This document shows, in pieces, positions 6,328-57,873 of a stretch of 64,000 nucleotides of DNA. The stretch spans positions 13,280 through 77,279 of the forward strand of contig JAURLQ010000024.1 of NCBI GenBank assembly GCA_030831125.1, in the 5' to 3' direction. The stretch's first letter is position 1, and each line of letters begins with the position of its first letter. This DNA comes from Gammaproteobacteria bacterium (GTDB taxonomy: Bacteria > Pseudomonadota > Gammaproteobacteria > Pseudomonadales > Pseudohongiellaceae). The translations under genes and the position numbers were made by a program. The notes beneath the pieces are model-generated. The model made no database searches, was not told the origin of the DNA, and worked only from the letters and a program-made list of their open reading frames with translations.

Positions 6328-6348
6328 AAACCTGACACTGGCCATGCC

Positions 6349-9066: not shown

Positions 9067-9221
9067 TGCAGCCTCCGCGGCCCGGTTTTTAATGGCCAGT
9101 TTGGGACGCTTTTGCCGGTAGCGCAAGCCCGGTGACCCTGGCCCATGTGCAACAGGCTCACTTGTAATCCGGGAGTGTCTCGCTACACTGCTTGTACATT
9201 TTACCGGTCAGAAACAGATTC

Positions 9222-31640: not shown

Positions 31641-33938
31641 ATGACCGCATACCATGGCTGGTTTTCTCAAAACAGAAAGGCAGTAACGGTTATATTCCTT
31701 TGCGCTGTCAGCGTACCAGTACAAGCCCAGGTGCAACCACCTGAGCTGATTACGGTTACGGCAACCAAACGCGAAGAAAACATCCATCGTGTTGATATCA
31801 GTCTTTCTGTCATCGATGCCGAGGAAATTCAAAACCTCAATCTGCTCTCATTGCCCGAGCTTGCCTCGCTTGCCCAGAATGTCTCCCTGTTTGAAGATTT
31901 TCCCGGTGCTGGCATTCCAACCTGGGTGATCAGGGGGGTTGGTCTGCAGGATTTCAACAGCAACAACACACCTGCTGCAGCTGTCTATCTTGACGGCAAC
32001 TATCAGGTGGCCACCGTGATGGGAGCTGCCGGACTTTTCGATGTCCAGCAGGTGGAAATTCTCAAGGGGCCCCAGGGAGGGCTATACGGCAGGAACACCA
32101 GTGGTGGAGCTGTGCTGATGAATACCCGCAGGGCTCAGCAGAATGTCACCAATGCCTATTTGCAGGCGGGGTATGGCAGCTGGGACAGGGCCCGGATAAC
32201 AGGGGCCATGAATGTACCGATCAATCCGGAAATGGCATTGCGTTTGTCCATGAACGGAGAGAGTGGCAATGATGGATGGCAGAAATCCATCTCCAGTGGC
32301 AGCACACATGGAGCACGGGATCGCTTGGATTTTCGTAGCTGGTTTGCCTATGAGCCAGGTGAAAAATTTGCCCTGCACTGGAAAGTCCAGAGTGGCTATG
32401 ACAACTCGGATATACCACTTGGCAGGTCCGCGGGCTTGTACGAAGACGGTTTAACCGGGAATTTCTGTGCAGCTGTCCTGCGTGGTCAGCGGAATGATGA
32501 CACATGTATCAGTTTCGCGGGTGTGAACCAGAGGATATTCAACGAAAGAGATCCTGAAGTGATTTCCCTGCAATCGGGAGATGGTCGCAATGTGTATTCT
32601 GATCCGCTCAACAGGCAGGGCAATGATTACGTGAGCACGCTGCTGGAGCTGACTGTAGACCTGCAAGGCATGGTTTTCCAGTCACTCAGTACCTGGGACA
32701 AATTCGGGTATGGTGTGGATCTCGATCTGGATGGCAGTGAAGGGGAGTATGGACACAGGCTGTCCAACAGTGACATCAGGGTGTTCAGTCAGGAGTTCCG
32801 TCTGCTTTCTGCTGCTGATGCGCCTTTGCAATGGCTTGCAGGTATTTCATGGAGTGATGAAGAGTTTGTTGAAAGAAGGGATTTCAACCTGCGCGACAAT
32901 CGCCTTGTAGGTCTTGGTCAGGGCAAGCTCCAGTATGATCAGGATACGACTTCGCTGGCAGTGTATGCAGATGCCAGCTACAGCTTTTCTCCTCAATGGC
33001 GGTTAACGGGTAACTTGCGCTATACCGACGAGGAAAAGCAATATCGCAACGGCGCGTTTTACATACCACTTGCCCAGCCTTTCTACTTCGTAAGAGATTT
33101 ACAACAGGATTACGCTCTTGGTGAAAATGTCAGCGGCAGCGTGTCGCTGAACTGGCTGCCCAATGACAACAGTATCGGTTACCTCAAGTTTTCTCGTGGT
33201 TTCAAGAGTGGTGGTTTCTATGGTGGCTTCCCGTTCAATCCGGCTGAGGTCATTCCCTACAGTGAAGAAACCATTGCGGCATGGGAGCTTGGCTTCAGAC
33301 AAAAATGGATGGATCGGCAGCTGCAAATGGCAGGTGCATTTTTCACCTATGATTATCAGGATGTACAGGGGTTCATCAGGGATATCAATCCGGTGACAGG
33401 AACCGGTATAGACAGGCTTGCCAATCAGGGTGATGCCCGGCATGAAGGACTGGAACTGGAGTTGTTATGGCGCCCTTCAGAAAATCTGCATTTTGAAGTG
33501 GGTGCAGGCTGGCTGGATGCAGTTTTCACTTCGTCAGATATCAGAACTGTCAATATCGATGGTGATCAGGTGCCGGTATCTGGCAGACGACCCTGGGCTC
33601 CCCGGTTCAATGGATATTTCCTGCTGAACTGGCGACACGATTTTTGGGCTCAGACGAAGCTGGATATGACCCTGGTCTATGATTACCGCAGTACTTTTTC
33701 AGGAGACCCATCATCACTTGCCGAGAAAGCCGTCAATGAGTTGCCTGGTTATGGACTGTTCGGGTTTGCGGCAAGACTTGGCAGAAATGGTTCTCCATGG
33801 GAGGCCGGCATCTGGATCAAGAACCTGCAGGACAAAAAATATCGATTGAGAACAAAGGGTGATGGTTTGAACAGTTACATGGATATATATGGTGAGCCAA
33901 GATCGATCGGGTTCAATATCCAGTATTCGTTCCAATAA
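31641..33938 (+). CDS. TonB-dependent outer-membrane receptor
   Basis: Signal peptide (…VPVQAQ), TonB-box/plug start 'ELITVTATKREE', 'VEILKGPQGGLYGRNTSGG', and a terminal aromatic in 'GFNIQYSF'. Confidence 0.85.
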   Translation: MTAYHGWFSQNRKAVTVIFLCAVSVPVQAQVQPPELITVTATKREENIHRVDISLSVIDAEEIQNLNLLSLPELASLAQNVSLFEDFPGAGIPTWVIRGVGLQDFNSNNTPAAAVYLDGNYQVATVMGAAGLFDVQQVEILKGPQGGLYGRNTSGGAVLMNTRRAQQNVTNAYLQAGYGSWDRARITGAMNVPINPEMALRLSMNGESGNDGWQKSISSGSTHGARDRLDFRSWFAYEPGEKFALHWKVQSGYDNSDIPLGRSAGLYEDGLTGNFCAAVLRGQRNDDTCISFAGVNQRIFNERDPEVISLQSGDGRNVYSDPLNRQGNDYVSTLLELTVDLQGMVFQSLSTWDKFGYGVDLDLDGSEGEYGHRLSNSDIRVFSQEFRLLSAADAPLQWLAGISWSDEEFVERRDFNLRDNRLVGLGQGKLQYDQDTTSLAVYADASYSFSPQWRLTGNLRYTDEEKQYRNGAFYIPLAQPFYFVRDLQQDYALGENVSGSVSLNWLPNDNSIGYLKFSRGFKSGGFYGGFPFNPAEVIPYSEETIAAWELGFRQKWMDRQLQMAGAFFTYDYQDVQGFIRDINPVTGTGIDRLANQGDARHEGLELELLWRPSENLHFEVGAGWLDAVFTSSDIRTVNIDGDQVPVSGRRPWAPRFNGYFLLNWRHDFWAQTKLDMTLVYDYRSTFSGDPSSLAEKAVNELPGYGLFGFAARLGRNGSPWEAGIWIKNLQDKKYRLRTKGDGLNSYMDIYGEPRSIGFNIQYSFQ

Positions 33939-34105
33939 AATGAAATCAATTTAATATCAATCGTGCGTCAATTTTTCCTTGAATATCAATGAGCTGCCGC
34001 CATTTTTCTGGAACTATTCTGATAGAATGCCTTGACCAGCAGGTTAATGCGTTGTCAAGAGAATAATTCATTTTCTGCGCAACCCTGTTGCTGCCATCAG
34101 TCAGT

Positions 34106-34140
34106 CAGTATCAAGGGACATGCGCGACAGTATCGGGACA
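34106..34140 (+). promoter_or_regulatory. Direct repeat CAGTATC(AA)GGGACA x2 (22-nt period) upstream of the GNAT-like gene; candidate regulator binding site
   Basis: CAGTATCAAGGGACA lies at 34106-34120 and CAGTATCGGGACA at 34128-34140, about 120-150 nt upstream of ATG 34257. Only the repeat itself is seen; its function is inferred. Confidence 0.25.
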
Positions 34141-34256
34141 AGGCATTTATGGAGGTCAAGGATCAGGGAGCGATCATGACCTTGTAACCCTGTTGGATTT
34201 CTGATGGCTTGCAGGTTAGGAATATCACTGCTGGACATAATCCTCAGGAGTTACTC

Positions 34257-35085
34257 ATGTCTCACTATCAATCCAGTGCTGCACTGCAGATACAACAGGA
34301 GGTCCATCCTGCAAGTATCGGCATGCTTTTCAAGGTTTTCGAGCAAAGCGAAGATCAGCTCAAGGTTGCCAGACTCAATCTGAAACTGCAGCAGCAGTTT
34401 GGCGATGATTTCTATTTGCAGTGTTACTCGGGCGATCAGCTCTTCCGATTACCAAAGTCCACGCTGCACAGTCTTGCAGACTGTTATGCCGAAGTTTTCA
34501 ATGAGAGCTGGGGAGAAGACTGGACCAGAGAGTCTGCGCTGGAAGAAATTCACAGCTGCATGGATTGTGATCCTGACTATACCCCTGTCATGAGCATACT
34601 GTTCAGGGATGAAAAGGTCATCGGGTTCTGTTGGGGTTTCATAATGGATGCAGCGTCACTGACTGATGAAAGCGCTCCATTCTCATCTTCCGACCTCAAG
34701 CGACATGAAAGTATGAATGTTGCCAGATATTGGTTGAGTGATGTTAGCAAAAAAAAGCAGATTCATATCAATATGTGAGCTTGGTGTAATTCGTGAATAC
34801 CGCCAGGACAAGACTCCCTACCTTACACTGCCAATTTTTGAAAAAGCGAGAGCTACTGAATGTAATGTGGCATTTTTCAGAACGAGGATATCAAGCAAGG
34901 CTTTCAAGTGGAGTCTGGGAGTGGGGTTTGTTCCCCTGCAGTTGTTCATGGTGGATGGTTTGCTGCTGATGAAAGGCAGTGTCAAATACGCCATGGAACT
35001 GCTTTATGGATCGATAGACCAGATGAAGAAAAGAAAAAGTCAGGTTGAAATAATCGGTAATATCAAGCGTTATATGTGTGATTGA
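34257..35085 (+). pseudogene. GNAT-fold-like acyltransferase gene split by a frameshift in an A8 homopolymer (two track ORFs, 34209-34778 and 34738-35085)
   Basis: ATG 34257 has AGGAG 7 nt upstream. ORF1 carries the N-terminal half ('VIGFCWGFIMD' beta-strand). ORF2, in the +1 frame, carries the motif-A-like 'ICELGVIREYRQDKTPY' and the C-terminal half. Deleting one A from the A8 run (34749-34756) joins them into one ~275-aa frame. Confidence 0.5.
34749..34756 (+). other. A8 homopolymer at the frameshift point of the GNAT-like gene
   Basis: The sequence reads ...gttagcAAAAAAAAgcagattc..., with the reading frames switching here. Confidence 0.9.
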
Positions 35086-35110
35086 GCCGGATTGAAGGTG
35101 TAAAGATATA

Positions 35111-37240
35111 ATGGCTTTCTGGTCACTCAATGATTTGTTTTTGATAAATGCACTGTTGCTGGTATTGCTGGGTGTATTCCTTGTTGCCAGGAAAAAGTCT
35201 GCCCTGCCCCGGATATTCTTTGTCACCAATATTTCATTGGCTGTGTGGAATATCTGTATATACCTTGTAGATGAGGGAATCTGGCAGGAATATGCCAGAG
35301 GCATTATCAAGGTGCAGTTGCTGGCAGCCATGTGCTTTGCCAACGGACTTTATTATTTCTGTTCTTCCTATCCCGTCTTCAAGCCAGGGCGTCTTTATCT
35401 GCTCAATGGTGTGGTGGCGCTCGCTTTTGCCGGTGCAATAATTTTTACCTCACAGGTATCCAGCGTAGTTTTTGTTGATGGAGAGTTGGTATACGAAGAT
35501 GTGCCGGGTTACTCACTATACTCGATTTACCTGTCATCGCTTGGATTCCTGGCCTTGTACAAGCTTGTCCGTGCACGTCGCCAGTATCCGGAGCATGACG
35601 GCAGAATCCGGTATTTTCTCATAGGTGTATCAATCTATGTCTGCTCTGCCATTATCTTCAATCTTGTACTTCCCAGCCTTGCTATCTACGATTTTCTTCT
35701 GCTGGGGAGATTGAGTGCCACTTCTGCGCCCCTGTTTTTCTTCTATGCAATAGCCAAACATGAATTTCTCGATGTAACTGTAATTATCAACAAGACAGCA
35801 GCCTGGCTTACAACTATGGGTCTGGTCCTGCTGTTTACAATGATTGTGAATCAGCTCACTGCAGCAAACGAGCTGCTGAACATGATTTCAGTAGGAGCAT
35901 GTCTGGTTGCTGCAGCGCTTTTCAGTAGCGATCTGCAACGCTTTTTGCTTACATCTGCGCGAAGAAAGTTCATCAGGGGCTGGTATTCAACGACTGACGT
36001 AATCAACAGGATTGCCAGCAAGCTTACACTGGAAAAGAACCGTGAGGCTATATTCCAGGAAATTATCTCGGAACTTGACCGGGTTTTTGAGCTGGAAGAT
36101 ACCTTGTGTGTTGTGGCTGTCAGAAATGAAAGTGGCAGTTTTGCCTATTACAAGGTGTTGGGCAGGTTCCAGAAAATCAGGACTGATGATCCTCTGATTC
36201 GATGGGTGGATGGTCTCAAGTCTGCCGTCCCGTTCGCCGATGTCCATGATGAAACCCTGATAGAAAGAATCAGCACGCTGGGTGTAGGTGTCAATAATGA
36301 CGGTGTGCTGTTGCCTTTCCATTCTCCTGAATTTCTTGAAGGGTTGCTTGTGCTTGGTGAAAAAGGAAACAAGCGCCCATATACGGTTGATGATTTCCGG
36401 TTTTTTGAAAATCTTATCAGTTTCGTTACGCCTGTACTTTACCGTCTTACTCCATTCGAGAAACTCGAGAAACTCTACAACGAAAACAGGGCCAGGCTCC
36501 ATGAGGCGGAAATTCAGCTGATAAGGGCGCAGAAAATTGAATCCATTGCTCATGCTACCAGGCAGTGCCATCACGAAATCAGGACCCCGCTCAATATCAT
36601 CAAGCTTGGGATAAACCGCATCCGGAATATGGAAGAGCTTGAGAACTACAAATCTGTTGCCAGGGAGGAAATAGAGCATGCACTGGAAATTGTTGATGAA
36701 ACACTTGCGCTTACCGATCTTTCTGACAGTTCTTCCAGAAGTTATACCGAGGTCAATGTCAACGATGTTATCAATCGTTGTTTGCGGTTGATCGATTATT
36801 CGAAATACAAAGTGGTGCTGGACCTCAATGAAGTGCCGGGATTGCTGGCAAGTTTCAGTGACCTGCAGGTAGTAATATCGAATCTCATTCACAATGCAAT
36901 GGATGCCATGCCGCAAGGTGGCACACTGGCATTTTCAAGTCTGGTTGAAGCTGGTGCTGTCAGCATTGTGGTGGAAGATACCGGTGAAGGCATTCCGGAA
37001 GAGCTCCGCTCCAGGGTATGGGAGCCTTACTTCAGCGGCAAATTCTCTGAAACCGGGAACTCGACAGCAGGAAGGGGATGGGGTCTCACTATCGTCAACA
37101 GGATAATCAGTGAGCACAAGGGGACGATCAGGTTTTCAAGTGAAATTGGCGTAGGTACCCGTTTCAGTATTTCTCTGCCAATCTACAAAGAATTGAATAA
37201 TGTCGGGATAGTAAGGCTTCGGGCAGAAAAGGCTTCCTAG
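35111..37240 (+). CDS. Sensor histidine kinase: N-terminal 7TM domain - GAF-like - HisKA - HATPase_c
   Basis: About 7 hydrophobic helices, ending in 'FFFYAIAKHEFLDV' (HisKA_7TM-like). GAF-like segment ('LLPFHSPEFLEGLLVLGEKGNKRPYTVDDFRFFE'). H-box 'CHHEIRTPLNII', N-box 'ISNLIHNAMDAM', G-boxes 'EDTGEGIP' and 'GRGWGLTIV'. It starts 26 nt after the GNAT-like gene. Confidence 0.85.
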   Translation: MAFWSLNDLFLINALLLVLLGVFLVARKKSALPRIFFVTNISLAVWNICIYLVDEGIWQEYARGIIKVQLLAAMCFANGLYYFCSSYPVFKPGRLYLLNGVVALAFAGAIIFTSQVSSVVFVDGELVYEDVPGYSLYSIYLSSLGFLALYKLVRARRQYPEHDGRIRYFLIGVSIYVCSAIIFNLVLPSLAIYDFLLLGRLSATSAPLFFFYAIAKHEFLDVTVIINKTAAWLTTMGLVLLFTMIVNQLTAANELLNMISVGACLVAAALFSSDLQRFLLTSARRKFIRGWYSTTDVINRIASKLTLEKNREAIFQEIISELDRVFELEDTLCVVAVRNESGSFAYYKVLGRFQKIRTDDPLIRWVDGLKSAVPFADVHDETLIERISTLGVGVNNDGVLLPFHSPEFLEGLLVLGEKGNKRPYTVDDFRFFENLISFVTPVLYRLTPFEKLEKLYNENRARLHEAEIQLIRAQKIESIAHATRQCHHEIRTPLNIIKLGINRIRNMEELENYKSVAREEIEHALEIVDETLALTDLSDSSSRSYTEVNVNDVINRCLRLIDYSKYKVVLDLNEVPGLLASFSDLQVVISNLIHNAMDAMPQGGTLAFSSLVEAGAVSIVVEDTGEGIPEELRSRVWEPYFSGKFSETGNSTAGRGWGLTIVNRIISEHKGTIRFSSEIGVGTRFSISLPIYKELNNVGIVRLRAEKAS

Positions 37241-37349
37241 GGTAGCGCTAGTGTGGTCACAGTAGAGTGGCTTGCAGTGGGTATCGGCGAACATTGACCT
37301 TTACAGGCGATTGCTGGTTGCCAGATCTGTAGCAGTGGTACTGTCGCAA

Positions 37350-37883
37350 TCAGTTGTTGTTGCCTGATTTTTTTGAGATTTCCTGCAGCCAACGGGATCT
37401 TTGCTCTATGAGCAGCTCACGCATGACTTCAGCCTCTCTGTCAAATACAACCCGTTTCAGCGATTGCAGCAACTCTGCTTCATCAAAGGGTTTCAGAATA
37501 TAGGCCGAAGCCATGCCAAGTGAAGAATCTTCTGCAAGCATGCGCAGGTGATTGTCACCATAGGCAGTAATAATGATTACCGGAATATAGCGTTTGAAAG
37601 GACTTTTATGTTCTTTCTGTCTCAACAGGCGCAGGAATTTGTCACCGCTCATGTTGGGCATTTGCCAGTCAAGCAGAATGCATGAAATGGCATTGCTCAG
37701 GAAGTCGAAACCACGCTCATGGCGGGAAAGAATATCAAGTGCTTCCTGCCCGTCATGGGCCATGAGTACTTCGTACAGGCCGGTTTCCCTTATTACATCG
37801 GCAGTGAGTTCGGCCTGACGAAGATTGTCCTCTACAAGCAGAACAGGTGGACGATCATATTTGATGGGGGAGAACCAGTTCAT
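37350..37883 (-). CDS. Stand-alone (CheY-like) response-regulator receiver protein
   Basis: 'VLLVEDN', phospho-acceptor 'ILLDWQMPNMSG', 'VIIITAY' and 'ILKPF' are all intact. Only a ~40-aa charged tail follows. ATG 37883 overlaps the upstream stop (ATGA). Confidence 0.85.
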   Translation of the reverse strand: MNWFSPIKYDRPPVLLVEDNLRQAELTADVIRETGLYEVLMAHDGQEALDILSRHERGFDFLSNAISCILLDWQMPNMSGDKFLRLLRQKEHKSPFKRYIPVIIITAYGDNHLRMLAEDSSLGMASAYILKPFDEAELLQSLKRVVFDREAEVMRELLIEQRSRWLQEISKKSGNNN

Positions 37884-38311
37884 TGCAGCTTGCTGGACTG
37901 TGTTGTTCGCAAGGCTCTTTCGTAAAGAGCCTTTTTGAAGACATAGACGGGACCATGCAGCAGGCCCGAACATAACATGAAGGGCAGGATACTGATCATG
38001 AAAAGCGTGTTGATAAACAGACGAATCGCCGGGAATAGTTCTTCCGGGTGACTTTTTTCAATTTGGTGCCTGGTATATTCAGCAAGTTCAACCGGCTTTC
38101 CCCTGATTTCGTTGGCCCAGATTGCCGAAATATATTTCTGGTAGCTGCGCCTGGGATACTTCTTCCACAGCAGTATGTGATATCGGTTGTAATATCGCCA
38201 GCTTTCATAGACTGCAACAGCCTTGAAAAACGCACCTGCAGAAGCCCCATAAACCAGACTCCAGATGAGTATCACCGGATAGAAAAGGATGGCTGGAGCG
38301 CTGGAGAGCAT
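37880..38311 (-). CDS. Small hypothetical membrane protein (two hydrophobic segments)
   Basis: 143 aa. Hydrophobic stretches 'APAILFYPVILIWSLVYGASAGAFF' and 'LFINTLFMISILPFMLCSGLL' flank a charged loop. I recognise no family. Coupling to the receiver gene supports it being real. Confidence 0.55.
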   Translation of the reverse strand: MLSSAPAILFYPVILIWSLVYGASAGAFFKAVAVYESWRYYNRYHILLWKKYPRRSYQKYISAIWANEIRGKPVELAEYTRHQIEKSHPEELFPAIRLFINTLFMISILPFMLCSGLLHGPVYVFKKALYERALRTTQSSKLQ

Positions 38312-38589
38312 GTCTGGATAAATTTTCGTATCCTCATTTTTTAAAAGTATACAACACTAGTTTGAACCACAAACAGGAGTTTGGGCAGATCAGGATACAT
38401 TACCCCGGATGGGTTGAGGGCCTGGCTAGAAGAGTGCAACATGTGATGGCGAGAGTCTTGTGATTATCAGGGAAGGCCCTCAAACTCGCGTTATGACATA
38501 TTGAGGACCGGATGAAGCAGATCTGCATTCTGCTCATCTCATAATGCTATTATTGAGAAGCCGGGTGGGCATTGAGGCAGGGAGAAAAA

Positions 38590-40068
38590 ATGAAGCTGTT
38601 TGTTGACAGGAACAGACTCTATCTGGTCCTGGTATATTTCTCGCTGTCGTTCTTCTACCTGTCCTTTATTCTTGACGGGATGGACGACCCTGTTCCGCTG
38701 CTGGGTTATATACTCGCGTTCATCGTGGTCATCGTCACCAGTCATGATGCACTGCTGCGCATAATCAGTCAGGCTACAGGACATCTTACAACCAGCACTG
38801 AGCTTGACTATTTTTCTGCATTCATTGAATTGAACAGGAAAATGCACAACTTTCTTGAAGTTGACGATGTGTTGATGATGGTCAGTGAAACACTGAGGCA
38901 GAAGGTCCAGCTGCACAATATTGTTTTCCTTGTTTCCAATGAGGTCGTCAGTGGTGTGGATGAGGTGGAAGGCAGTAATGACCGCATGCTTGCTCTGCAC
39001 AGTTGGCCGGATTCAAGAGAATGGGCATTCCACACGCCGGATTTCGAGCAGGAAGTTTCCGGGAAATGCCGATTGTGTTCATTTGCGGATGCAGATCCTC
39101 TGACTGTCAATGCACTTCGTGAAACAGGAACATCCTTCATGCTGCCCATAGTCCAGAATGGCAAGGTGCTATGCATCATCCTGGCAGGCCGGACTGATGA
39201 AAAGCCCTATACGGAATTTGAGTACCAGATGTTTGATTATCTGGCCAATCAGCTGTCCATCATTCTTGACCGTATACGTGTTTATGCCAAGGTTATGCAC
39301 CAGACCGCCATGGATCATGCAGAAAAACTCCAGGTCATGCAGAGTCTCAGTGCCAATATTGCACATGAAATGAGAACTCCTCTTTCAGGTATCAGGGCGA
39401 GTATCAGTGGTATTGAGGAATACCTGCCCCAATTGATGGCCAGTCATGAATGGTGCTCAAAACATGCTCCTGAACATGCGCCTGCTATCAGGGAGGGTCA
39501 TCTTAATATCCTGCAGACTTCACCAAGACGCATCAAGCTGATGATTGATCAGGCCAATACTGTCATTGATATGTTGTTGATGAATCTGCGGGACAACTTA
39601 TTTGACAGAAGACAGCTCAATCCGATTGGTGCTGCAGATATCATAGAGCAGGCAGTGGACAGGTATCCCTTCAAGAGTGGAGAGCGGGAAAAACTCAATC
39701 TTGACCTTGATGATGATTTTACTTTCCTCGGGGTTGAGAGTCTTTTTATCTATATATTTTTCAATCTGCTCAAGAACGCCTATTACTCGATACAGTCGGC
39801 GCAAAAAGGAGGAATCACCATCAGACTTGAAACCGGTGAAAGATTCAACAGAATCATTTTTCGTGATACAGGAACTGGTATCGACAGCACCATTATAGGC
39901 CGGATTTTTGACGGCTTCTTTACTACCAAGAGTGACGGTACTGGTGCAGGTCTCGCATTCTGTAAAAGAACAGTGCTGAGTTTCGGTGGCGAAATTGAAT
40001 GTGAGTCAGTGCATGGTGAATTCACTCAGTTCAGGATCAGTTTGCCTGTATTCGAAGGCGTATCCTGA
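38590..40068 (+). CDS. Sensor histidine kinase: 2 TM - GAF-like - HisKA - HATPase_c
   Basis: ATG 38590 is preceded by GGGAG. H-box 'NIAHEMRTPLSGI', N-box 'FNLLKNAYYS', 'RDTGTGID' and 'GTGAGLAFCKR'. GAF-like segment 'MLPIVQNGKVLCIILAGRTDEKPYTEFEYQMFDYLANQ'. Confidence 0.85.
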   Translation: MKLFVDRNRLYLVLVYFSLSFFYLSFILDGMDDPVPLLGYILAFIVVIVTSHDALLRIISQATGHLTTSTELDYFSAFIELNRKMHNFLEVDDVLMMVSETLRQKVQLHNIVFLVSNEVVSGVDEVEGSNDRMLALHSWPDSREWAFHTPDFEQEVSGKCRLCSFADADPLTVNALRETGTSFMLPIVQNGKVLCIILAGRTDEKPYTEFEYQMFDYLANQLSIILDRIRVYAKVMHQTAMDHAEKLQVMQSLSANIAHEMRTPLSGIRASISGIEEYLPQLMASHEWCSKHAPEHAPAIREGHLNILQTSPRRIKLMIDQANTVIDMLLMNLRDNLFDRRQLNPIGAADIIEQAVDRYPFKSGEREKLNLDLDDDFTFLGVESLFIYIFFNLLKNAYYSIQSAQKGGITIRLETGERFNRIIFRDTGTGIDSTIIGRIFDGFFTTKSDGTGAGLAFCKRTVLSFGGEIECESVHGEFTQFRISLPVFEGVS

Positions 40069-40095
40069 GATTGGGAAAATGCCGTAATGATTTTC

Positions 40096-41139
40096 TCAAT
40101 GCACTATCTGGGGCAATACCGGATTGCTTTCCATGAAGTTGTTGAATGAAAAAACCTGTTTCCCGTGGATATGCGGCAGGCATTCATCATTGGTTATTGT
40201 GGTGAAATAACTGAAGCCTCTGGATTTGATTTCATGTGCCGGAAAATAATACAGATTCCATTGTGCCAGGAATGGGTGGCTGGCATTGAGTTCAACACCA
40301 AGGACATCAAACACCGGCAGCAGTTTGCCCACCTTTACTTTTGATAGCAGCTCTGCCGGAGCGCCCGCACTTTCAAGTTGTTCGCAATGACTGGCCAGTG
40401 CTTCCTGATGATAAATCAGCAGGCACTGTTTTTTGCCGTCCCCATCGACCATCAGAAATCCACTGTGTGGCGAATCTAGCATGTAGTACTCGATGCAGCC
40501 CGTTTTGGTTCTCAACTCCCGGAAAAATTCCTGGAACTCACTGTTTACCAGAAAGGCATCCTGGTTGTTGGCTATGATGGGATCGGTAATCAGCTTGAAA
40601 CTGCTGCGAAAATACTGATCCTGGAAAGTGGCTATGGTACCGTTCAGTTTCTTTTTCAGGCGTGGGTCGTGCTTGTCAATGAACTGGTCTATGAGCTGTT
40701 GATTGAATGCCTTCACTGCAAGTTCCATGTCTGCCTGGCCGGTAAGCAGCACTTTCCGGATAAAGGGGTTGGTCATTTTCATCAGGAATTCCAGGCCATT
40801 CATTTCAGGCATCGAATAGTCGACCACTACAGTTGAACAGGTCTGGAAGCGCGACCAATTGAGAACTTCATGATGCAGTTTGCCGATATCAATATGTGAG
40901 AGAGAATCCGATTCCAGTGGTCCGGTTTTGTAGTTTGCATAGCAGCGCTGCAAAAAGTTCACGTGTCTGTGTGCATTATTGACATAACCCAGCGCTGCAT
41001 TGGCAGACTGGAAAAGCTTGAAGCTGAGATTCTTGTCCAGCATGAGACTTATGCCGTCCAGAAAATCAGGATCATCATCCACGAGTACTACCTGGGTGGG
41101 AAAATAGAAAGGATGACCTACACTGATGCCTTCTGACAT
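40096..41139 (-). CDS. Atypical response regulator: receiver with ~40-aa insertion plus uncharacterised ~170-aa C-terminal domain (LqsR-like architecture)
   Basis: 'VVLVDDDPDF', acceptor Asp in 'VVVDYSMPEMNG' at about residue 107, 'VLLTGQAD' and 'KHD'. No HTH or enzymatic motif is seen in the C-terminal half. 347 aa. Confidence 0.7.
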   Translation of the reverse strand: MSEGISVGHPFYFPTQVVLVDDDPDFLDGISLMLDKNLSFKLFQSANAALGYVNNAHRHVNFLQRCYANYKTGPLESDSLSHIDIGKLHHEVLNWSRFQTCSTVVVDYSMPEMNGLEFLMKMTNPFIRKVLLTGQADMELAVKAFNQQLIDQFIDKHDPRLKKKLNGTIATFQDQYFRSSFKLITDPIIANNQDAFLVNSEFQEFFRELRTKTGCIEYYMLDSPHSGFLMVDGDGKKQCLLIYHQEALASHCEQLESAGAPAELLSKVKVGKLLPVFDVLGVELNASHPFLAQWNLYYFPAHEIKSRGFSYFTTITNDECLPHIHGKQVFSFNNFMESNPVLPQIVH

Positions 41140-41148
41140 GACTGTTCC

Positions 41149-42507
41149 CTAACGCTCTTCTCTGGATTCCTGGTCTGGCAGCAAGTGTCTGCATTGTCTT
41201 TGCAGAAGTTCGGCATGTGTGCCAGACCGCGATGTAATTATAAAACTGCCCATGGTGAGCCTGCCTTCATCAAGCGTGAATGGTTCGGATTGTGCTACAG
41301 CAAATCGACTCTGGCCATCTGCCAGATCATAACTGAGCTCGCTGGCAAGAATCTGGTTGGCATTTCCGTGTTGCAGCATTTCCTGGACCAGCTCTACCGG
41401 CTTGCCAATGATGGATTCTTCCCGCGTCTTGTCTCCTTCGGATCTGGATTTTTTCCACAGGGGAGAAAAATAGGCGTCACCGCTATGCACAGCTATACGG
41501 AAATCCAGCGATTGTGCCTTGCGTGCTTTCTGATTGGCTGCAAACTCCTGCATCAACAGCAGAAAGAGCTGGGCAAAACAGATGGCGTTACCGGCATGAT
41601 CATCCTGACAGCGCCTTGTATCGAAGGTAACCAGACTCAGATTTCCCTGGGTCCTTGTGACCACCCCCCGGTAAAGACGGGCAGCCTGTCGGATATAGAA
41701 CTGATATTGCTGCAGCAGGATGGAGAGTGTGCCGGGATGAAGCAGTTCGATGGCTGTCTGGGCATTGACTACCTCTATAGCCACTACGGTTGTCATGCGG
41801 CGCTCGGCTTTGAGGTTCTGCTCTTCTTCTTCAGAAGGGTCCGGAATGCCGGTACTGGCAATCTGTTCCTCAAGCTCGGAAACACGATTCCATAGTTCGA
41901 TAAATCTGAGTTGGACGAGTTGCACTTCAGGCACTGTGCTCAGCTGTAATGGGACAGCATCTTCTGTGGGCTCTTCCGGAGTGCTGTTGACCAGCTCCTC
42001 CAGTGGCCTTGTAAAGGTCTGTGCAAGTATCCAGGCCAGAACAATGGTCAGCAGCAGTCCTGCAGCAATTGTTGCGTAGTAGGCTGCCTGTGGCGTGGTC
42101 AGGGGGTTGGTGTTGGTAGCCGGATCAAGTGTCAGAATCACAAATCCGGCTACAGCCTCCTGCAGGGATACCGGTGCACGGTATACCCCGGGCATCGAGG
42201 TGTCAGGAATGCTTGCAGTCGGTGCTGTAGGCGCCAGAATGCGGCCATCAACATCTGTGATTATGATGCCGCTTATGCCTTCTTCCCGACCCAACTGGCT
42301 GGCCACGACATTGAGCCCCAGCTGATCATTCGCAAGGACCAGTTCAGTTACCGAATCTGCAGCCTGTCTGGCCAGGACCTGCCCGAGAATATCCTGCTGG
42401 GCCAGCAGAGTGCGATCCATTTGCAGTTTCAGGGTAATCCAGAAACCAGTTGTCAGGACGATGAGCAGAAGCGAGAAGGCCAGCGTAATACGGATCCTGA
42501 TGGTCAT
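41149..42507 (-). CDS. Membrane sensor protein with degenerate class III nucleotidyl-cyclase-like C-terminal domain
   Basis: TM1 (residues ~5-25), a ~120-aa periplasmic segment, TM2 and 'FTRPLEEL' (HAMP-like start). An acidic coiled linker follows, then 'TTVVAIEVVNAQ ... GNLSLVTF ... FRIAVHSGDAYF ... IIGKPVELVQEM', which follows the cyclase-homology-domain strand order but has lost key catalytic residues. Confidence 0.5.
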   Translation of the reverse strand: MTIRIRITLAFSLLLIVLTTGFWITLKLQMDRTLLAQQDILGQVLARQAADSVTELVLANDQLGLNVVASQLGREEGISGIIITDVDGRILAPTAPTASIPDTSMPGVYRAPVSLQEAVAGFVILTLDPATNTNPLTTPQAAYYATIAAGLLLTIVLAWILAQTFTRPLEELVNSTPEEPTEDAVPLQLSTVPEVQLVQLRFIELWNRVSELEEQIASTGIPDPSEEEEQNLKAERRMTTVVAIEVVNAQTAIELLHPGTLSILLQQYQFYIRQAARLYRGVVTRTQGNLSLVTFDTRRCQDDHAGNAICFAQLFLLLMQEFAANQKARKAQSLDFRIAVHSGDAYFSPLWKKSRSEGDKTREESIIGKPVELVQEMLQHGNANQILASELSYDLADGQSRFAVAQSEPFTLDEGRLTMGSFIITSRSGTHAELLQRQCRHLLPDQESREER

Positions 42508-42619
42508 CAGCTTTCACCTCCCGCATTGCTTGTAAGCACTGTAAACTGCATGCGCATGACAGTTCGGTCAGGAAATTCGGGGAGGAAATCAGCTGCTTTT
42601 CCGGTGAGATAGTCTGTCA

Positions 42620-44725
42620 TCATTGTTGTGCTGCAAGTGTTATCGCTTTTTCAACCATGAATTCATAGTGCATTTCGTGGCAGGGTGACTGCAGTGCAAA
42701 ACCCTGGACAAAATCAGCACCTGACTCCCATAGTACCGGCAGAACGTCCATGTCTTCTACATTCGGGATCAGCACTTTGGTATTCCTGGCGTGCAGCGTT
42801 TGTATCATCTTTTGTACGTGGCTTCTCTGCTGCGTACTGTAAATGATGTCGCGTACCAGTGTTACATCAAATTTGATAAATGCGGGCTTGATTTCATCCA
42901 GAATCGGGTAGGGGTCTATGGCGCAACCGAAATGGCAGATTGATATCCCTATGCCAAGTTCAGCAAGCCCATGGCAGAAATTGAGGGCGCAGTCCCTCGT
43001 GCTGTACAAATCAACTTCACTGATTTCAATGGTCAGTCTGCCACAGTTCACCCGCCTGCAGGAGAGCTGTTCACTCAGCCATGGCAGGAAAGTACGGCTG
43101 ACCAGGGTATTGGGAGTGATTTTCAGGACCAGGGACTCTTCAAGTGCCTGATTTGCCAGTTGCTCCAGAACCATGCTTGCTACCAGTCGGTCCAGCTGCT
43201 CACCCAGGCCATTGAGATTAGCCAGCCAAAGGTAAGTATCCGGACTTGTTTCCTTGCCATCACTGTCCAGCATGCGGCTGAGAACCTCATAGCCGGGACG
43301 GTTCTGCCCCTTCAGATCTATGACAGGCTGATAAGCCAGCCTGAATTTTTTCTGCTGCAGTGCCATTTGCAGGTAGCGCAGGATACCTGAGGCACCATGC
43401 TGACCGGTCTCATTGCCACAAAAGGAGAAAGGGGATTCATTTTCAGGATGCTCCTGAGGCAAACGGGTGCGAGCACGTTCCAGCACGGATTCCGCATCAT
43501 GGCTATTGTCATTGATCAGGGACATCCCGATTGAACAACCAGGTTCCCGGGTGTCCTGCATGGCAGGAGATAGCGTTTTGTTGATCTGGGTGCGGATTTC
43601 CCGTCCAAGCAGAATTATCCTGTCAGGATTGCTTTCATATACAAGCAGTCCGAATACATGAGCATCCAGGCGTGCGGCTGCAAACGGCATTTTGATGGTT
43701 TTTTGTAGCCAGGCTGCAATGTCATTGAGCACCATATTGGCATTGGCTTTGCCAATACTTGAGCTGATATCCACAAGAGCGTTCAGCTCTACTACCAGTA
43801 GAGCACTGAAAATCCGGGATTCATACGCCTTGAGGATGGCTTTCTCGATCCTGTTTGTAAAAGATTTACGGTTTTCCAGACGAGTCAACAAGTCACGGGA
43901 CTGCAGTTTTTCAAGTTCTTCCCGGTATTGTGCATTGCCACTGTCGTGCTCTGCTTTAAGCTGCAGGCAGTTTTTGCCATTGTGCCGCGTCGGAGTGAAC
44001 AGACATTTCAGGGCATGTACACTCCTATTGAGCGTTAACCCCCGAATGCAGATCGATGCATTGTTTTCCATGGCCTGCAACAGGTTTCGGACTTTTTCCC
44101 TGTCCTGTTGTGCCACGAGATCCAGAAATGGTGTGGTCCTGATTGTATCCGTATCCGGGTATTCAAACAGTGCTGCGTAGCTGCTGTTGCAATAGATATG
44201 CAGGCCATCAAGCATGCATGCGTAGGGAGCAGGGCTGTCATCCATAAGGTGACTCAGTCTTTGTGCTGTTTGCCTGAAATCGAGTTCAAGCGCAGCGAGC
44301 CTGCGGTGTAATTGCCGATAAGCAGATTCCCGGCTGATGCCTCTGGCCAGCCTTTCAGATTCGTTTGTGGCAATTACGTCACATGCTCCTTCCCTGAACA
44401 GAGCCTGGCGTGCGGTTGCGGCTATATGGTCGTCTACTACCAGCACGGACAGCGGGGCTTCCTGTTGTTGTACTGTCTGTAGTACAGCTGGTGCAGAAAG
44501 CGCGGGAAAACTGTGGCACACCAGCACATCCCAGGAGTGGGTGCAAAGCAGTGTTGCAAGCTCATCACCCTTGCAAGTATGCGCGGCCTTGATGGACAAG
44601 CCTGCATGCCTGAGATCACTGATCATCCTGTTGGCAATCGCGCTGCTGGCAGCAGTTACCAGCAAGCGAATGGTAGTGCTCTGTTCGTCCATGATATTGG
44701 CGTTGCCAGGCATAGCCTGCCTCAT
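42620..44725 (-). CDS. FimX-like degenerate REC-PAS-GGDEF-EAL protein (probable c-di-GMP receptor)
   Basis: The REC-like N-terminus lacks the acidic pocket and acceptor ('LLVTAASS', 'WDVLVCHS'), and a PAS-like segment follows. The GGDEF domain starts with 'DLLTRLENRKSF', but the signature is replaced by 'RLDAHVF'. The EAL domain has 'YQPVIDL...YEVLSRM' (EVL), 'ITPNTL', 'IEISE', 'ICHFG' in place of DDFG, 'IKFD' and 'VQGF'. Confidence 0.75.
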   Translation of the reverse strand: MRQAMPGNANIMDEQSTTIRLLVTAASSAIANRMISDLRHAGLSIKAAHTCKGDELATLLCTHSWDVLVCHSFPALSAPAVLQTVQQQEAPLSVLVVDDHIAATARQALFREGACDVIATNESERLARGISRESAYRQLHRRLAALELDFRQTAQRLSHLMDDSPAPYACMLDGLHIYCNSSYAALFEYPDTDTIRTTPFLDLVAQQDREKVRNLLQAMENNASICIRGLTLNRSVHALKCLFTPTRHNGKNCLQLKAEHDSGNAQYREELEKLQSRDLLTRLENRKSFTNRIEKAILKAYESRIFSALLVVELNALVDISSSIGKANANMVLNDIAAWLQKTIKMPFAAARLDAHVFGLLVYESNPDRIILLGREIRTQINKTLSPAMQDTREPGCSIGMSLINDNSHDAESVLERARTRLPQEHPENESPFSFCGNETGQHGASGILRYLQMALQQKKFRLAYQPVIDLKGQNRPGYEVLSRMLDSDGKETSPDTYLWLANLNGLGEQLDRLVASMVLEQLANQALEESLVLKITPNTLVSRTFLPWLSEQLSCRRVNCGRLTIEISEVDLYSTRDCALNFCHGLAELGIGISICHFGCAIDPYPILDEIKPAFIKFDVTLVRDIIYSTQQRSHVQKMIQTLHARNTKVLIPNVEDMDVLPVLWESGADFVQGFALQSPCHEMHYEFMVEKAITLAAQQ

Positions 44726-47984: not shown

Positions 47985-48845
47985 TCAGGAGACCTGCTGC
48001 AGTATGCCCGTAGCCTGTCCCATGAGAACTGCGCAGCCGCTCTCAAGGTCTTCGTTCCACTTCACCATGCTGTCACCAAAAATCACGATCGCAGTAGAGC
48101 CGAGTTTGAAACGGCCGACTTCAAGCCCACGTTCCAGATGTACAGGTGGTGCCTGCTGACTGTAGTCAACTGACTGCAGACCATGGGGCGCAGGAGCCAC
48201 CTGGCCTGCCCATACAGTTTCTATCCCTGCCACTATCATTGCACCGACAAGGACGATGGCCATGGGTCCATGGTCAGTGTCAAAAATACAGACGACTCTT
48301 TCATTTCTCGCAAACAGCCTGTCCACACCCTCAGCGGTTGTCTGGTTTACGGAAAAAAGTCTTCCGGGAACATAAACCTGTTCCTTGAGTGTGCCGGCAA
48401 GTGGCATATGTACACGATGGTAGTCGCGGGGTGAAAGGTAAACTGTCATGAAGCTGCCATTACTGAATGCGGCAGCACGATCGGCATCTCCTCCCAAAAG
48501 TGCGGTCAATGAATAACTACGTCCCTTGGCCTGGAAAATGGTGTCTGAGTTAATGGTGCCGAGAGCGCTGATGGCGCCATCCGCCGGGCAGATTACCGAC
48601 CGGGGATTGTCATCTGTTGTTCTGGCGTCAGACTTGAGCTGGCGCGTAAAAAAATCATTGAAACATGTGTAGGCAAGAGGATCGGGACTGGCTGCCTCGC
48701 TCATATTGACCTGGTAACGTTTGATAAACCAGGAAATGAAAGTGTTCTTGATCCAGCCGACCTGGCAGTTGGCAAGCATTCCTGCGATGCGAGAGATCAA
48801 GTGATGGGGCAGTACATACTGCAGTAATACAAACAGTTTTTTCAT
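47985..48845 (-). CDS. psd: Phosphatidylserine decarboxylase proenzyme
   Basis: 'MKKLFVLLQYVLPHHLISR' N-terminus and the self-cleavage 'LGST' site in 'FKLGSTAIVIF'. The ATG overlaps the upstream stop (ATGA). Confidence 0.88.
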   Translation of the reverse strand: MKKLFVLLQYVLPHHLISRIAGMLANCQVGWIKNTFISWFIKRYQVNMSEAASPDPLAYTCFNDFFTRQLKSDARTTDDNPRSVICPADGAISALGTINSDTIFQAKGRSYSLTALLGGDADRAAAFSNGSFMTVYLSPRDYHRVHMPLAGTLKEQVYVPGRLFSVNQTTAEGVDRLFARNERVVCIFDTDHGPMAIVLVGAMIVAGIETVWAGQVAPAPHGLQSVDYSQQAPPVHLERGLEVGRFKLGSTAIVIFGDSMVKWNEDLESGCAVLMGQATGILQQVS

Positions 48846-49657
48846 GACCATGATTCTATTGGCGTATCCGGCAGGTTGCCCCATTCACCCCAGGACCCAT
48901 GATAGCCTTGTGCGGTATATCCGAGCGCCCGTGCAACAAAGTAACTCAGGCTCGAACGGTGGTGGCTCTGGCAATGGGTAATGACGTGCTTGCCCTGCAC
49001 GATGTCGATGGCCTTCAGTTTATCCTGCAGCAGAGGCAGTGGATGCAGACGCAAATTGCGCTCCCGGTCCATCAGCTCCAGCCAGTCCAGATTTACTGCT
49101 CCGGGGATATGACCTGCTCGTGCAGAGGAAGTTCTCAGGCCTGCATACTCCTCAGGGGATCTGGCATCCCAGATCGAGATCCCGGGCTTGCCGATGGCAG
49201 CCTTGACTGTTTCCAGTTCAGCGATGGGTTCCCGGTTCAATCGGAGGCTCACGCTTGTTGGTGTTACTTCATTGACTTCAGGTGTAACGGGATGTCCTTC
49301 CCGGTACCAGGAAAGCAGTCCACCATTGAGGAATGAATAATTCTTGTGGCCGATGATATCCAGTGTCCAGATCAGTCGTGCTGCCCAGCCCCCACCTTCA
49401 TCATCATAGGCTACGATATGCTTTCCCGGCGTGTATCCGATCCGGGAAAACAGATTACGTAACTGGCTTTCTGTTGGCAGCATGCCTGAAGCAGGTGGAA
49501 TACCGCATACCAGCTCGGCCGGGTTGATGTGCACGGCTCCGGGAACATGCAGTTGTTTCCAGTTCTGGGGCGCGCAAACGTCGACAACCAGAAGATCAGT
49601 GTCCTGAAGATGGGTTTCAAGTGTTGAAGGTTCGATAACCAGATCAAGCTTTGGCAT
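48842..49657 (-). CDS. Tandem-rhodanese sulfurtransferase
   Basis: Two rhodanese domains, with the active-site loop 'HCQSHHRSS' in the second. ATG 49657 (MPKLDLVI...) is preferred. Confidence 0.75.
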   Translation of the reverse strand: MPKLDLVIEPSTLETHLQDTDLLVVDVCAPQNWKQLHVPGAVHINPAELVCGIPPASGMLPTESQLRNLFSRIGYTPGKHIVAYDDEGGGWAARLIWTLDIIGHKNYSFLNGGLLSWYREGHPVTPEVNEVTPTSVSLRLNREPIAELETVKAAIGKPGISIWDARSPEEYAGLRTSSARAGHIPGAVNLDWLELMDRERNLRLHPLPLLQDKLKAIDIVQGKHVITHCQSHHRSSLSYFVARALGYTAQGYHGSWGEWGNLPDTPIESWS

Positions 49658-49775
49658 AGTACTACCCGGCCGGCCTGCGTTGAGTATACGCACATCTTTG
49701 TCAACTGACAGCCTGTTACTGTTGCCAGCGTGCCTGATGTCTCATTTTGCTACTGCATGCATTCAGCCAGGCATG

Positions 49776-50780
49776 TCAGATTATGCGTGAGCGGAGAATG
49801 AACTGGTAACTGTGAAGTCTTCTTTCATCAATTTTCCCGTCGGCTACGGCTTGCAGCAGGGCGCAGCCCTGCTCTTTTTCGTGTCTGCAGTCCCGGAATC
49901 TGCACTGTCCGATAAATGGGCGAAATTCCACAAATCCTGCAAGTATTTCCTCGGGCTCGATATGCCACAGACCGAATTCACGGATACCCGGTGAATCGAT
50001 CAGTTTGCCGCCTTCAGGAAAGTGGAAGAGTCTGGCGGCAGTGGTGGTATGGCGCCCTTTGGTTTTTGCTTCAGAAAGCGTGCCTTCTTCTGTATTGATG
50101 CCGGGCAGCAGCAGATTGGCCAGTGCCGATTTACCCACACCACTTTGTCCCACAATGACACTGGTCCTGGTGGCCAGCAATGCAAGCAGGCTTGCCCTGC
50201 CTTCACCCGTGCGGCAGGAAACCCTGTGGGTCTGGTAACCCAAATTTTCATAAAGGGCCAGCATGTCATTTACGAGCGGGGTATGGGGGGCTTGTGGCAT
50301 AAGGTCACATTTGTTCAACAGCAGTACAGCCTCGGCCCCCATCTGGTCTGCGGCAACAAGATACCGGTCGATCAGATTGAAATGGGGTTGAGGCTCCGGG
50401 GCTATGATAATGATCATGGTGTCGATATTGGCAGCAACAGGTTTCAATGCACCCAGTTTCGATGGTCTGCAAAGCACACTTCTGCGGGGCAAGGTGGCCA
50501 CGACCACACCTTCAGGATCACCGGCTTCCCAGATGACTTCATCTCCGGCAACCAGTGGTTCAAGATTGCTGCGCTGGAAGCAGCGCACCAGAGAGCCACA
50601 AAGGTCACCATCGAGAGCTTCAATGTCGAGTTGCTGTCCGAAATGTGAAATTACCAACCCTCGATACTGGGTGCCCTGCGTATCGGCATTACCAGCTTCT
50701 ACAATATGTCGTTCAGTTTGTGCCTGCTGCTTGCCCTGGATACGGACCAGTTGCTGTTTGCTGAGTTTTCTTCGCGTCAT
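49776..50780 (-). CDS. rsgA: Ribosome small-subunit-dependent GTPase A
   Basis: Circularly permuted GTPase ('LLNKCDL', 'GQSGVGKSALANLL') and a C-terminal zinc knuckle 'CRFRDCRHEKEQGCA'. Confidence 0.88.
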   Translation of the reverse strand: MTRRKLSKQQLVRIQGKQQAQTERHIVEAGNADTQGTQYRGLVISHFGQQLDIEALDGDLCGSLVRCFQRSNLEPLVAGDEVIWEAGDPEGVVVATLPRRSVLCRPSKLGALKPVAANIDTMIIIIAPEPQPHFNLIDRYLVAADQMGAEAVLLLNKCDLMPQAPHTPLVNDMLALYENLGYQTHRVSCRTGEGRASLLALLATRTSVIVGQSGVGKSALANLLLPGINTEEGTLSEAKTKGRHTTTAARLFHFPEGGKLIDSPGIREFGLWHIEPEEILAGFVEFRPFIGQCRFRDCRHEKEQGCALLQAVADGKIDERRLHSYQFILRSRII

Positions 50781-50856
50781 GTTGTCATAATAGAACCAAC
50801 AGGCACTATCAGGGTAGCTGCTTTGCTACAATCGGCGCTTCAAAAAGGGATTCCCA

Positions 50857-56780: not shown

Positions 56781-56812
56781 TGTCGTAAGTCCCTGAAAAT
56801 ATACCCATCATT

Positions 56813-57856: not shown

Positions 57857-57873
57857 GTTACTCTGACCCCTTT
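57794..57873. repeat. Perfect 23-bp inverted repeat (AAAGGGGTCAGAGTAACTTGATC / GATCAAGTTACTCTGACCCCTTT) with 34-nt spacer
   Basis: The arms at 57794-57816 and 57851-57873 are exact reverse complements. The element begins at the last base of the DUF1552 stop codon and covers the annotated start of the MBL gene. Confidence 0.9.

Follow-up and report, generated by a model that had tools for sequence, protein, structure and literature searches.

A conserved eight-gene signalling module of Pseudohongiellaceae-type Gammaproteobacteria with a predicted GNAT-fold protein of an undescribed family

What kind of signalling unit is formed by eight adjacent genes that encode two sensor kinases, receiver proteins and degenerate enzymes, and no regulator with a DNA-binding output? 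This question is raised by a block at positions 33939 to 44725 of a 64,000-nucleotide stretch of DNA from a Gammaproteobacteria bacterium of the family Pseudohongiellaceae (assembly GCA_030831125.1, contig JAURLQ010000024.1); the whole stretch is referred to as the window. A first-pass annotation, made from the sequence alone, had listed eight genes in this block and had read them as one signalling island of accessory origin, in which an enzyme gene and a kinase gene might form a synthase/receptor pair. All eight genes were found in their places, and they are called here, in the order in which they lie on the forward strand, A, B, D, C, E, H, G and F. Their anatomy and conservation are solid. 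The block is an old, vertically inherited lineage-core module of Pseudohongiellaceae-type Gammaproteobacteria and not a foreign island. To the further reading, that the module consists of two phosphotransfer circuits, a signal cassette made of A, B, D and C and a second set made of E, H, G and F, we give an even chance.

Gene order and composition of the module

Gene order and strands are those of the window in every genome locus long enough to show the module. The count comes to about 35 loci from species-level genomes and about 35 from metagenomes, about 70 altogether, with identities of protein A that range from 75% down to 37%. The scan of species-representative genomes gave 42 loci, all from metagenome-assembled genomes (MAGs) and labelled Pseudohongiellaceae, Pseudomonadales or Gammaproteobacteria, about 8 of the 42 locus records being evidently mislabelled (for example as Klebsiella or Acidoferrum). 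A metagenome scan with a narrower alignment of distant A proteins returned mostly further copies of the same module. The first-pass annotation had asked whether the genes keep company in other genomes; conservation of the whole eight-gene order is a stronger result than that. Upstream of the module lies parC, with or without a TonB-dependent receptor gene, and downstream, in closer relatives, epmB. The flanking genes tolC, DUF1249, cpdA-like, yqiA-like, parE, parC and epmB are as syntenic as the module itself.

The TonB-dependent receptor gene of the window (31641 to 33938) lies directly upstream of A. It is kept in closer relatives at 45 to 57% identity and is not found with the A-containing cassettes elsewhere; a role of the receptor in uptake of a signal or of a nutrient is possible. 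In distant loci (L067, L068, L072-L076 (~5200-6900), L069, L070, L078 and L096) a GGDEF/EAL-like gene, 22 to 24% identical to F, lies between parC and A. This gene replaces the TonB-dependent receptor in most of these loci; L069 and L070 have kept the receptor, and there the gene stands upstream of it.

The block had also been described as more AT-rich than its flanks. This holds for the genes A to H (by position, that is, those before G and F), which have a guanine-plus-cytosine (GC) content of 46 to 48% in the window, compared to 51% for parC and the TonB-dependent receptor, 53% for G, 51% for F and 56% for epmB. Such a difference would fit a recently acquired accessory genomic island, but in about 30 orthologous loci with GC contents of 38 to 61% the same genes show values 3 to 6 points lower than those of parC, G, F and epmB. 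A dip that is present in every orthologous locus and tracks the GC content of the host is a property of the genes and not the trace of a recent transfer. The block is moreover found at the same site in all relatives, and the window holds no tRNA genes, no flanking repeats beyond short chance ones and no integrase or transposase among its open reading frames (ORFs). Recent acquisition as an island is thus already contradicted and is regarded as highly improbable; the lower GC content stands as an observation on A to H and falls as a sign of accessory origin.

Protein A and its predicted fold

Gene A (34257 to 35085, plus strand) encodes 275 aa if intact and is split in the window copy. Sequence searches did not assign the protein to any family. 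No match to Pfam, NCBIfam or PDB sequences was obtained even at E ≤ 10, whether the window fragments, the intact protein or 36 aligned members were used as query; the Pfam model Autoind_synth, which describes LuxI-type acyl-homoserine lactone synthases, did not match either, and Pfam scans of nine free-standing distant A-like proteins matched no acetyltransferase model. None of its 125 homologues (49 to 98% identity) has a Pfam domain, and where a name is given, in a few cases, it is 'hypothetical'. The alignment of the family contains 51 invariant columns. With 112 matches among 1.84 billion representative proteins, this unnamed family is not an ordinary housekeeping acetyltransferase, a possibility that the first-pass annotation had considered fatal to its proposal.

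Since the sequence searches found nothing, the fold of A is visible through structure prediction only. An AlphaFold2 model built from 36 sequences (mean predicted local distance difference test score, pLDDT, 84.8; predicted template-modelling score, pTM, 0.82) shows the GNAT order of elements, beta1-alpha1-alpha2-beta2-beta3-beta4-alpha3-beta5-alpha4-beta6-beta7, with further helices at both termini and one inserted helix that separates beta-3 from beta-4. A Foldseek search with this model gave 277 PDB matches at E ≤ 1e-3, and the best 50 of the 277 were almost all GNAT-fold proteins. Near the top among the matches listed were the N-acyl amino acid synthase FeeM, the acyl-homoserine lactone synthase BjaI and arylalkylamine, agmatine and polyamine N-acetyltransferases; the resemblance to BjaI is at the level of the fold only. 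Based on this confident model, A is predicted to be a GNAT-fold protein of a family for which the databases hold no model. Strand beta-4 carries a conserved Glu (IRELGV). The loop after beta-4 that binds the pyrophosphate of coenzyme A (CoA) in GNAT proteins, Q/R-x-x-G-x-G/A, was not found in A; at the corresponding position, assigned from the secondary structure of the predicted model, A has the glycine-free sequence R182-Q-D-K185-T-P187, of which R, K and P are conserved. Hydropathy analysis, a check that does not cover export signals, predicted no transmembrane (TM) segment in A. A reading of A as a GNAT toxin was rejected on account of its size, its conservation and the absence of an antitoxin partner.

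A cassette of A, a 7TM kinase, a receiver and a membrane protein

Gene B (35111 to 37240, plus strand, 709 aa) encodes a sensor kinase of the architecture HisKA_7TM - GAF - HisKA - HATPase_c. It starts 25 nt after the stop codon of A; the close proximity reported earlier is real, the figure of 26 nt given for it is not. Hydropathy indicated about 7 to 8 hydrophobic segments in B. The HisKA_7TM model (PF16927) matches 22 of 29 B homologues, 27 of them module copies and 2 cassette copies from elsewhere, with a best E of 2.5e-12, and GAF_2 matches 10 of the 29. The window copy itself gave no PF16927 match even at E ≤ 10, and its GAF domain lies below the Pfam threshold. The H-box, N, G1 and G2 motifs of the kinase are conserved in the 27 orthologues.

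Two genes on the minus strand follow. D (37350 to 37883, 177 aa) is a stand-alone CheY-like receiver (Response_reg, E 4.5e-18) with a C-terminal helical tail and no further domain, and it retains the DD, D, T/S and K residues across the clade. C (37880 to 38311, 143 aa) shares an ATGA overlap with D, to which it is translationally coupled, and encodes a membrane protein with 2 hydrophobic regions, for which domain searches returned no known family.

Parts of this arrangement recur outside the module, in unrelated lineages. Distant A homologues (27 to 39% identity) adjoin HisKA_7TM kinases in six other contexts (loci L049, L056, L057, L059, L061 and the P0141 contig), HDC-family pyruvoyl decarboxylases in 5 contexts (L049, L053, L056, L059 and the P0141 contig) and an AMP-binding ligase in one (L049). 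The fullest sets read C-like, D-like, A-like, HDC-family pyruvoyl decarboxylase and B-like kinase in L056, and C-like, D-like, A-like and B-like in L057. The B homologues downstream of the A-like genes are full length in both (36% and 27% identity, respectively), the receivers are 53% and 39% identical to D, and homologues of C precede the D-like receiver in both. L049 consists of a hydrolase, the AMP-binding ligase, the A-like gene, the HDC gene and a HisKA_7TM-GAF kinase; L059 of the A-like gene, HDC and a 7TM kinase; and the P0141 contig of an OmpR-type regulator, the A-like gene, HDC and a HisKA_7TM kinase. In L053 the A-like gene is accompanied by HDC, SDR and MarR genes, and in L061 it adjoins a divergent 7TM gene.

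Because L056 and L057 combine C, D, A and B in the absence of E, H, G and F, C-D-A-B is a portable cassette. What had been described as one island is thus better read as two circuits, C-D-A-B and E/H-G-F. Judged from their gene content, the fuller cassettes look like a short biosynthetic route placed ahead of a 7TM kinase, in which a decarboxylase may provide an amine, a ligase may activate an acid and the GNAT-fold protein may join the two. The earlier idea that an enzyme gene upstream of a 7TM kinase gene marks a synthase/receptor pair gains independent support from the recurrent adjacency of A-like and HisKA_7TM genes, together with the decarboxylase in 5 contexts and the ligase in one.

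Kinase E, the LqsR-type regulator H and the pseudo-enzymes G and F

E (38590 to 40068, plus strand, 492 aa) combines a sensor part of 2 TM segments, as predicted by hydropathy, and a GAF domain with a HisKA and HATPase_c core of the LqsS/LuxN type. The GAF domain is weak in the window copy; three GAF models match 13, 10 and 7 of 27 orthologues. The start of E is most plausibly the ATG at 38590. Just upstream of it, at 38581 in the divergent intergenic region between C and E, the window has a 1-nt deletion when compared to L001 and L002, two of the metagenome contigs with an intact A. The NCBIfam LuxN model matched the core of E with an E value of 6e-42, and its DHp and CA domains are 30% identical to those of two kinases (L051 and L052; E 8e-32 and 8e-24) encoded immediately upstream of LqsR-like regulators on plasmids of Rhodanobacter and Polaromonas. 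B aligns with these kinases in the CA (ATPase) domain only. The catalytic motifs of E are conserved in its orthologues, and both kinases, B and E, as well as both true receivers, D and H, keep all catalytic motifs clade-wide. The resemblance of the E core to LqsR-adjacent kinases, limited to the CA domain in the case of B, points to a pairing of B with D and of E with H. Locus L056 contains, divergent from its C-D-A-HDC-B cassette, a hybrid kinase gene (4824 to 6512; HisKA-HATPase-REC) whose core is 34% identical to that of E, so that an E-type kinase may go with the cassette outside Pseudohongiellaceae too.

The remaining three genes lie on the minus strand and are packed in a way that looks like an operon; the gaps are 9 nt between H and G and 112 nt between G and F in the window; in L004 H and G overlap and the gap between G and F is 11 nt. 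A scan for promoter and terminator consensus sequences found fewer promoter-like sites than in shuffled sequence and none at the intergenic regions, and an Rfam scan of the window matched no RNA family.

H (40096 to 41139, 347 aa) matches the LqsR structure 6sy9 with an E value of 5.3e-45, residues 11-338 of 347 aligning with chain residues 29-352. The acceptor Asp D107 (VVVDYSMPEMNG) and the other receiver residues are conserved. By its sequence H is thus a true, full-length LqsR-family homologue, with a receiver followed by an LqsR-type degenerate GGDEF-like domain. Receiver and degenerate GGDEF-like domain are the parts from which LqsR-family regulators are built, and their output is unknown (PMC3376566, PMC10653808).

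G (41149 to 42507, 452 aa) has 2 TM segments enclosing a periplasmic domain, a HAMP-like region and a class III cyclase domain that is degenerate. The profile of its orthologues matches the cyclase structure 2w01 at E 3.8e-19 as well as many other cyclases, and the window copy lies just below the Pfam cut-off for cyclases (21.3 vs 21.9 bits). None of the 27 sequences keeps the first metal-binding Asp, where E, K, Q, N or S stands instead, and none keeps the transition-state Asn; the window copy has N for the second Asp and Q for the Arg. With the first metal Asp replaced throughout and the catalytic Asn absent, G is a pseudo-cyclase.

F (42620 to 44725, 697-701 aa) has FimX proteins of Pseudomonas and Xanthomonas as its top PDB matches, the best being 4j40 (E 3e-48), and the next match other than FimX follows at E 7e-23. 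Pfam recognizes PAS, GGDEF and EAL domains. The GGDEF motif reads DAHVF, EAL reads EVL and DDFG reads CHFG (clade-wide xH[FY]G), and the receiver-like N-terminal domain has H, C, Y or F at the acceptor position. These motifs and the complete four-domain architecture, namely a receiver-like domain without acceptor Asp, PAS, degenerate GGDEF and degenerate EAL, characterize F as a putative cyclic diguanylate (c-di-GMP) receptor of the FimX type. FimX of Pseudomonas aeruginosa and Xanthomonas is a c-di-GMP receptor that controls type IV pili. After epmB-efp-epmA, the window carries psd, a rhodanese gene, rsgA and the oligoribonuclease gene orn (47985 to 51411). In P. aeruginosa fimX presumably lies between parC and psd/orn, with the same neighbours; a literature check did not confirm this. 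On that assumption F would presumably be the positional fimX orthologue, and A to G, with the TonB-dependent receptor, would be lineage-specific additions.

Profile matches in Pfam, NCBIfam and PDB hence bear out the domain calls of the first-pass annotation, including the labels LqsR-like, FimX-like and pseudo-cyclase. The domain scans likewise confirmed that both kinases, B and E, are of the orthodox type, in which HisKA and HATPase_c are joined by neither a receiver nor a histidine phosphotransfer (HPt) domain, and that no protein of the block has a helix-turn-helix (HTH) domain as DNA-binding output.

Proposed circuits, natural variants and alternative readings

In the first of the two proposed circuits, A would be an acyltransferase that N-acylates an amine or an amino-acid-derived compound; in the fuller cassettes the amine would be supplied by the adjacent pyruvoyl-dependent decarboxylase and the acyl group by the adjacent AMP-ligase. 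A small amide, possibly extracellular, would result and be detected by the HisKA_7TM-GAF kinase B. B would set the phosphorylation state of receiver D, whose action would be through contact with another protein, probably the membrane protein C that is translated together with it. In the second circuit E would phosphorylate H. As H has no DNA-binding domain it would act through protein partners, most likely by way of its degenerate GGDEF-like domain on the operon partners G and F. Given that F is a FimX-type candidate receptor of c-di-GMP, we propose that the likely effect of this circuit is on the type IV pilus or on surface behaviour. Cross-talk between the two circuits may occur. The signal might, as suggested by the first-pass annotation, be a quorum-sensing autoinducer that is wired into c-di-GMP or pilus control.

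Several observations weigh against this two-circuit reading. The flanks are as syntenic as the module, so that linkage alone is no proof of one pathway. The A family is entirely uncharacterised and the synthase role of A is a prediction; the absence of the CoA-loop glycines makes its acyl donor, and even catalysis, uncertain. No HDC-type decarboxylase and no ligase was found in the 64-kb window, and neither decarboxylase nor ligase is present in the 20-kb module loci. The G profile found no match in the plasmid loci L051 and L052, where the LqsS/LqsR-like genes stand without a G-like partner, and no pilus genes adjoin the block. Two natural variants also count here. In L081 (1321-3465) D and C come right after an A of 73% identity, and B is cleanly absent. 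In L054 (638-2242; JGI 3300009071 contig) a 534-aa in-frame fusion joins an A-like GNAT domain to an E-type kinase core; the A-like domain stands where the TM and GAF sensor would be, and the two parts meet at the last GAF helix. Gene order in this locus is parC, fusion, H-like (LqsR-like), G-like, epmB and efp, without the TonB-dependent receptor, B, D, C and F. The A without B in L081, this fusion, and the intact B beside a broken A in the window show that A and B can be separated.

The fusion is the main support for a different role of A, as an input or regulatory subunit of the kinases instead of a signal synthase, in which case the module would report metabolic state and not cell density. 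A could then sense acyl-CoA or another metabolite, acylate a protein of the pathway, or make an intracellular ligand for the GAF domains. In L054 an A-like domain takes the place of the sensor, followed by LqsR-like and G-like genes; A appears to be cytoplasmic by hydropathy, both kinases carry cytoplasmic GAF domains, the canonical glycine motif for CoA binding is missing, and A persists without B in L081. Yet only one contig shows the fusion, in which several residues invariant in the family are gone (VFNESWGE has become LARERWYE, and R182 is lost), the repeated adjacency of decarboxylase and AMP-ligase genes looks biosynthetic, and of B it is the 7TM domain that always goes with A. We regard a role of A as input subunit as unlikely.

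Only slightly better is the standing of a further alternative, namely that two or three independent systems (C-D-A-B; E-H, perhaps with G; and fimX) are neighbours through rare rearrangement and share no pathway, which we consider rather unlikely. The occurrence of C-D-A-B alone elsewhere, of LqsS/LqsR-like pairs alone on plasmids and of an L054 locus without F, B, D and C would all agree with it, as would the equal synteny of the housekeeping flanks, the flank-like GC content of F and the presumed place of fimX between parC and psd/orn in P. aeruginosa. What speaks for a connected module is that order and orientation remain invariant over the full range of A identities (75 to 37%), while the neighbouring TonB-dependent receptor has been replaced in some lineages. 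F, G and H are moreover tightly packed like an operon, and an E-like hybrid kinase stands beside the cassette in L056.

Comparison with known signalling systems

The module shares the logic of the Lqs, Cqs and LuxM/LuxN systems, an LqsR protein and a kinase core of the LqsS/LuxN type, and differs from them in its sensors and in its candidate synthase. As in the Lqs system of Legionella pneumophila, the regulator H is a full-length LqsR homologue with an acceptor Asp and no DNA-binding output, and the adjacent convergent kinase E has the type of core found in kinases that flank LqsR-like regulators. Unlike Lqs, the block has no pyridoxal phosphate-dependent synthase of the LqsA/CqsA type; no aminotransferase-family gene was found in the block, in the 20-kb orthologous loci or among the larger ORFs scanned in the wider window. 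The sensor of E is of the 2TM-GAF type, in contrast to the six-helix sensors of LqsS and CqsS, the comparison of the core having been made through the LqsR-adjacent kinases and the LuxN model. The gene of H furthermore shares a predicted transcript with those of a pseudo-cyclase and a FimX-type protein, an arrangement that the examined LqsR loci did not show. PhcX of Ralstonia provides a precedent for an LqsR-family regulator rewired to a different cassette without lqsA, but the partners found here (GAF kinase, pseudo-cyclase, FimX-type protein and GNAT/7TM cassette) are unrelated to those of phcBSRQ.

With LuxM/LuxN and CqsA/CqsS of Vibrio the first circuit has in common that the gene of a candidate small-molecule enzyme lies directly upstream of that of a polytopic membrane histidine kinase, and LuxN is the best-scoring model for the core of E. 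A is, however, unrelated in sequence to LuxM/AinS, LuxI and CqsA, and B is a non-hybrid kinase of the HisKA_7TM-GAF type. The predicted fold and the conserved beta-4 Glu link A to the LuxI-type synthases and BjaI, to FeeM and to amine N-acetyltransferases; it departs from them in that no hidden Markov model of these families matches it, in its extra helices and in the missing glycines of the CoA loop.

F shares with FimX the four-domain architecture, with an acceptor-less receiver, a degenerate GGDEF and an EVL-type EAL domain, and its function may be similar to judge from these motifs; its predicted co-transcription with an LqsR-family regulator and a pseudo-cyclase sets it apart. The beta subunit of soluble guanylyl cyclase is an example of a catalytically inactive class III cyclase domain that needs a partner. 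G resembles such domains in that profiles assign it the cyclase fold and in that it has neither the first metal Asp nor the catalytic Asn. It differs from the beta subunit by its receptor-like 2TM-HAMP part, and no obviously active cyclase partner is encoded nearby.

A literature search found no published account of the A family, of the GNAT/HDC/HisKA_7TM cassette, of signalling in Pseudohongiella or of a link between LqsR and FimX. The A family is a GNAT-fold family, as predicted, that databases do not model. If the two-circuit reading is true, the cassette offers a candidate source of the ligand for the orphan HisKA_7TM sensor domain and a chemically new synthase/receptor pair beside LuxM/N, CqsA/S and LqsA/S among the membrane-kinase systems of Gram-negative bacteria. 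The predicted operon of an LqsR-family regulator with a pseudo-cyclase and a FimX-type receptor provides a concrete hypothesis on the partners through which LqsR of Legionella and PhcX of Ralstonia might give their output. The carriers of the module are abundant, mostly uncultured aquatic Gammaproteobacteria. A bolder version would see in the A-family GNAT protein, the optional decarboxylase and ligase, the HisKA_7TM kinase, the receiver and C a new class of signalling systems whose signal is an N-acylated biogenic amine or a related amide, coupled in Pseudohongiellaceae to an LqsR-family regulator that binds pseudo-cyclase and FimX-type partners; in this specific form we hold it to be doubtful, more so than either of the alternatives on A and on independent systems discussed above.

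The window copy of gene A

In the window gene A is split by a +1 frameshift that results from one extra A in a run of eight (A8, 34749 to 34756, plus strand). Alignment and blastn differences showed seven A residues (A7) in the intact versions; three independent metagenome contigs (L001-L003), which match the window at 99.85% identity for up to 12.3 kb, carry A7 and with it an unbroken 275-aa ORF. When compared to these three contigs, the window also has a C to T exchange at 34774, 18 nt downstream of A8, which changes Arg173 to Cys in the family-invariant IRELGV motif. The frameshift and R173C thus lie close together in a gene that otherwise shows about 1.4 exchanges or other differences in each kb. 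None of the other ~50 window ORFs of at least 150 aa looks broken, and A is therefore probably a genuine pseudogene, inactive on the 79.9-kb contig of this MAG, an assembly error being the alternative.

Other features of the window

Outside the module, the window encodes at 9192 to 11024 an orphan ATPase of the T2SSE family with an N-terminal MshEN domain, which is a c-di-GMP-binding module; the gene lies beside lipopolysaccharide (LPS) core genes and outside any pilus or secretion cluster. A 494-aa ORF without a Pfam match (15110 to 16594) lies among the LPS core biosynthesis genes. Finally, the region from 55191 to 61762 contains genes for a 529-aa ankyrin-repeat protein, a protein of the metallo-beta-lactamase fold and a pair of planctomycete-type cytochrome-domain proteins made up of DUF1552 and DUF1585-1595/PSCyt.

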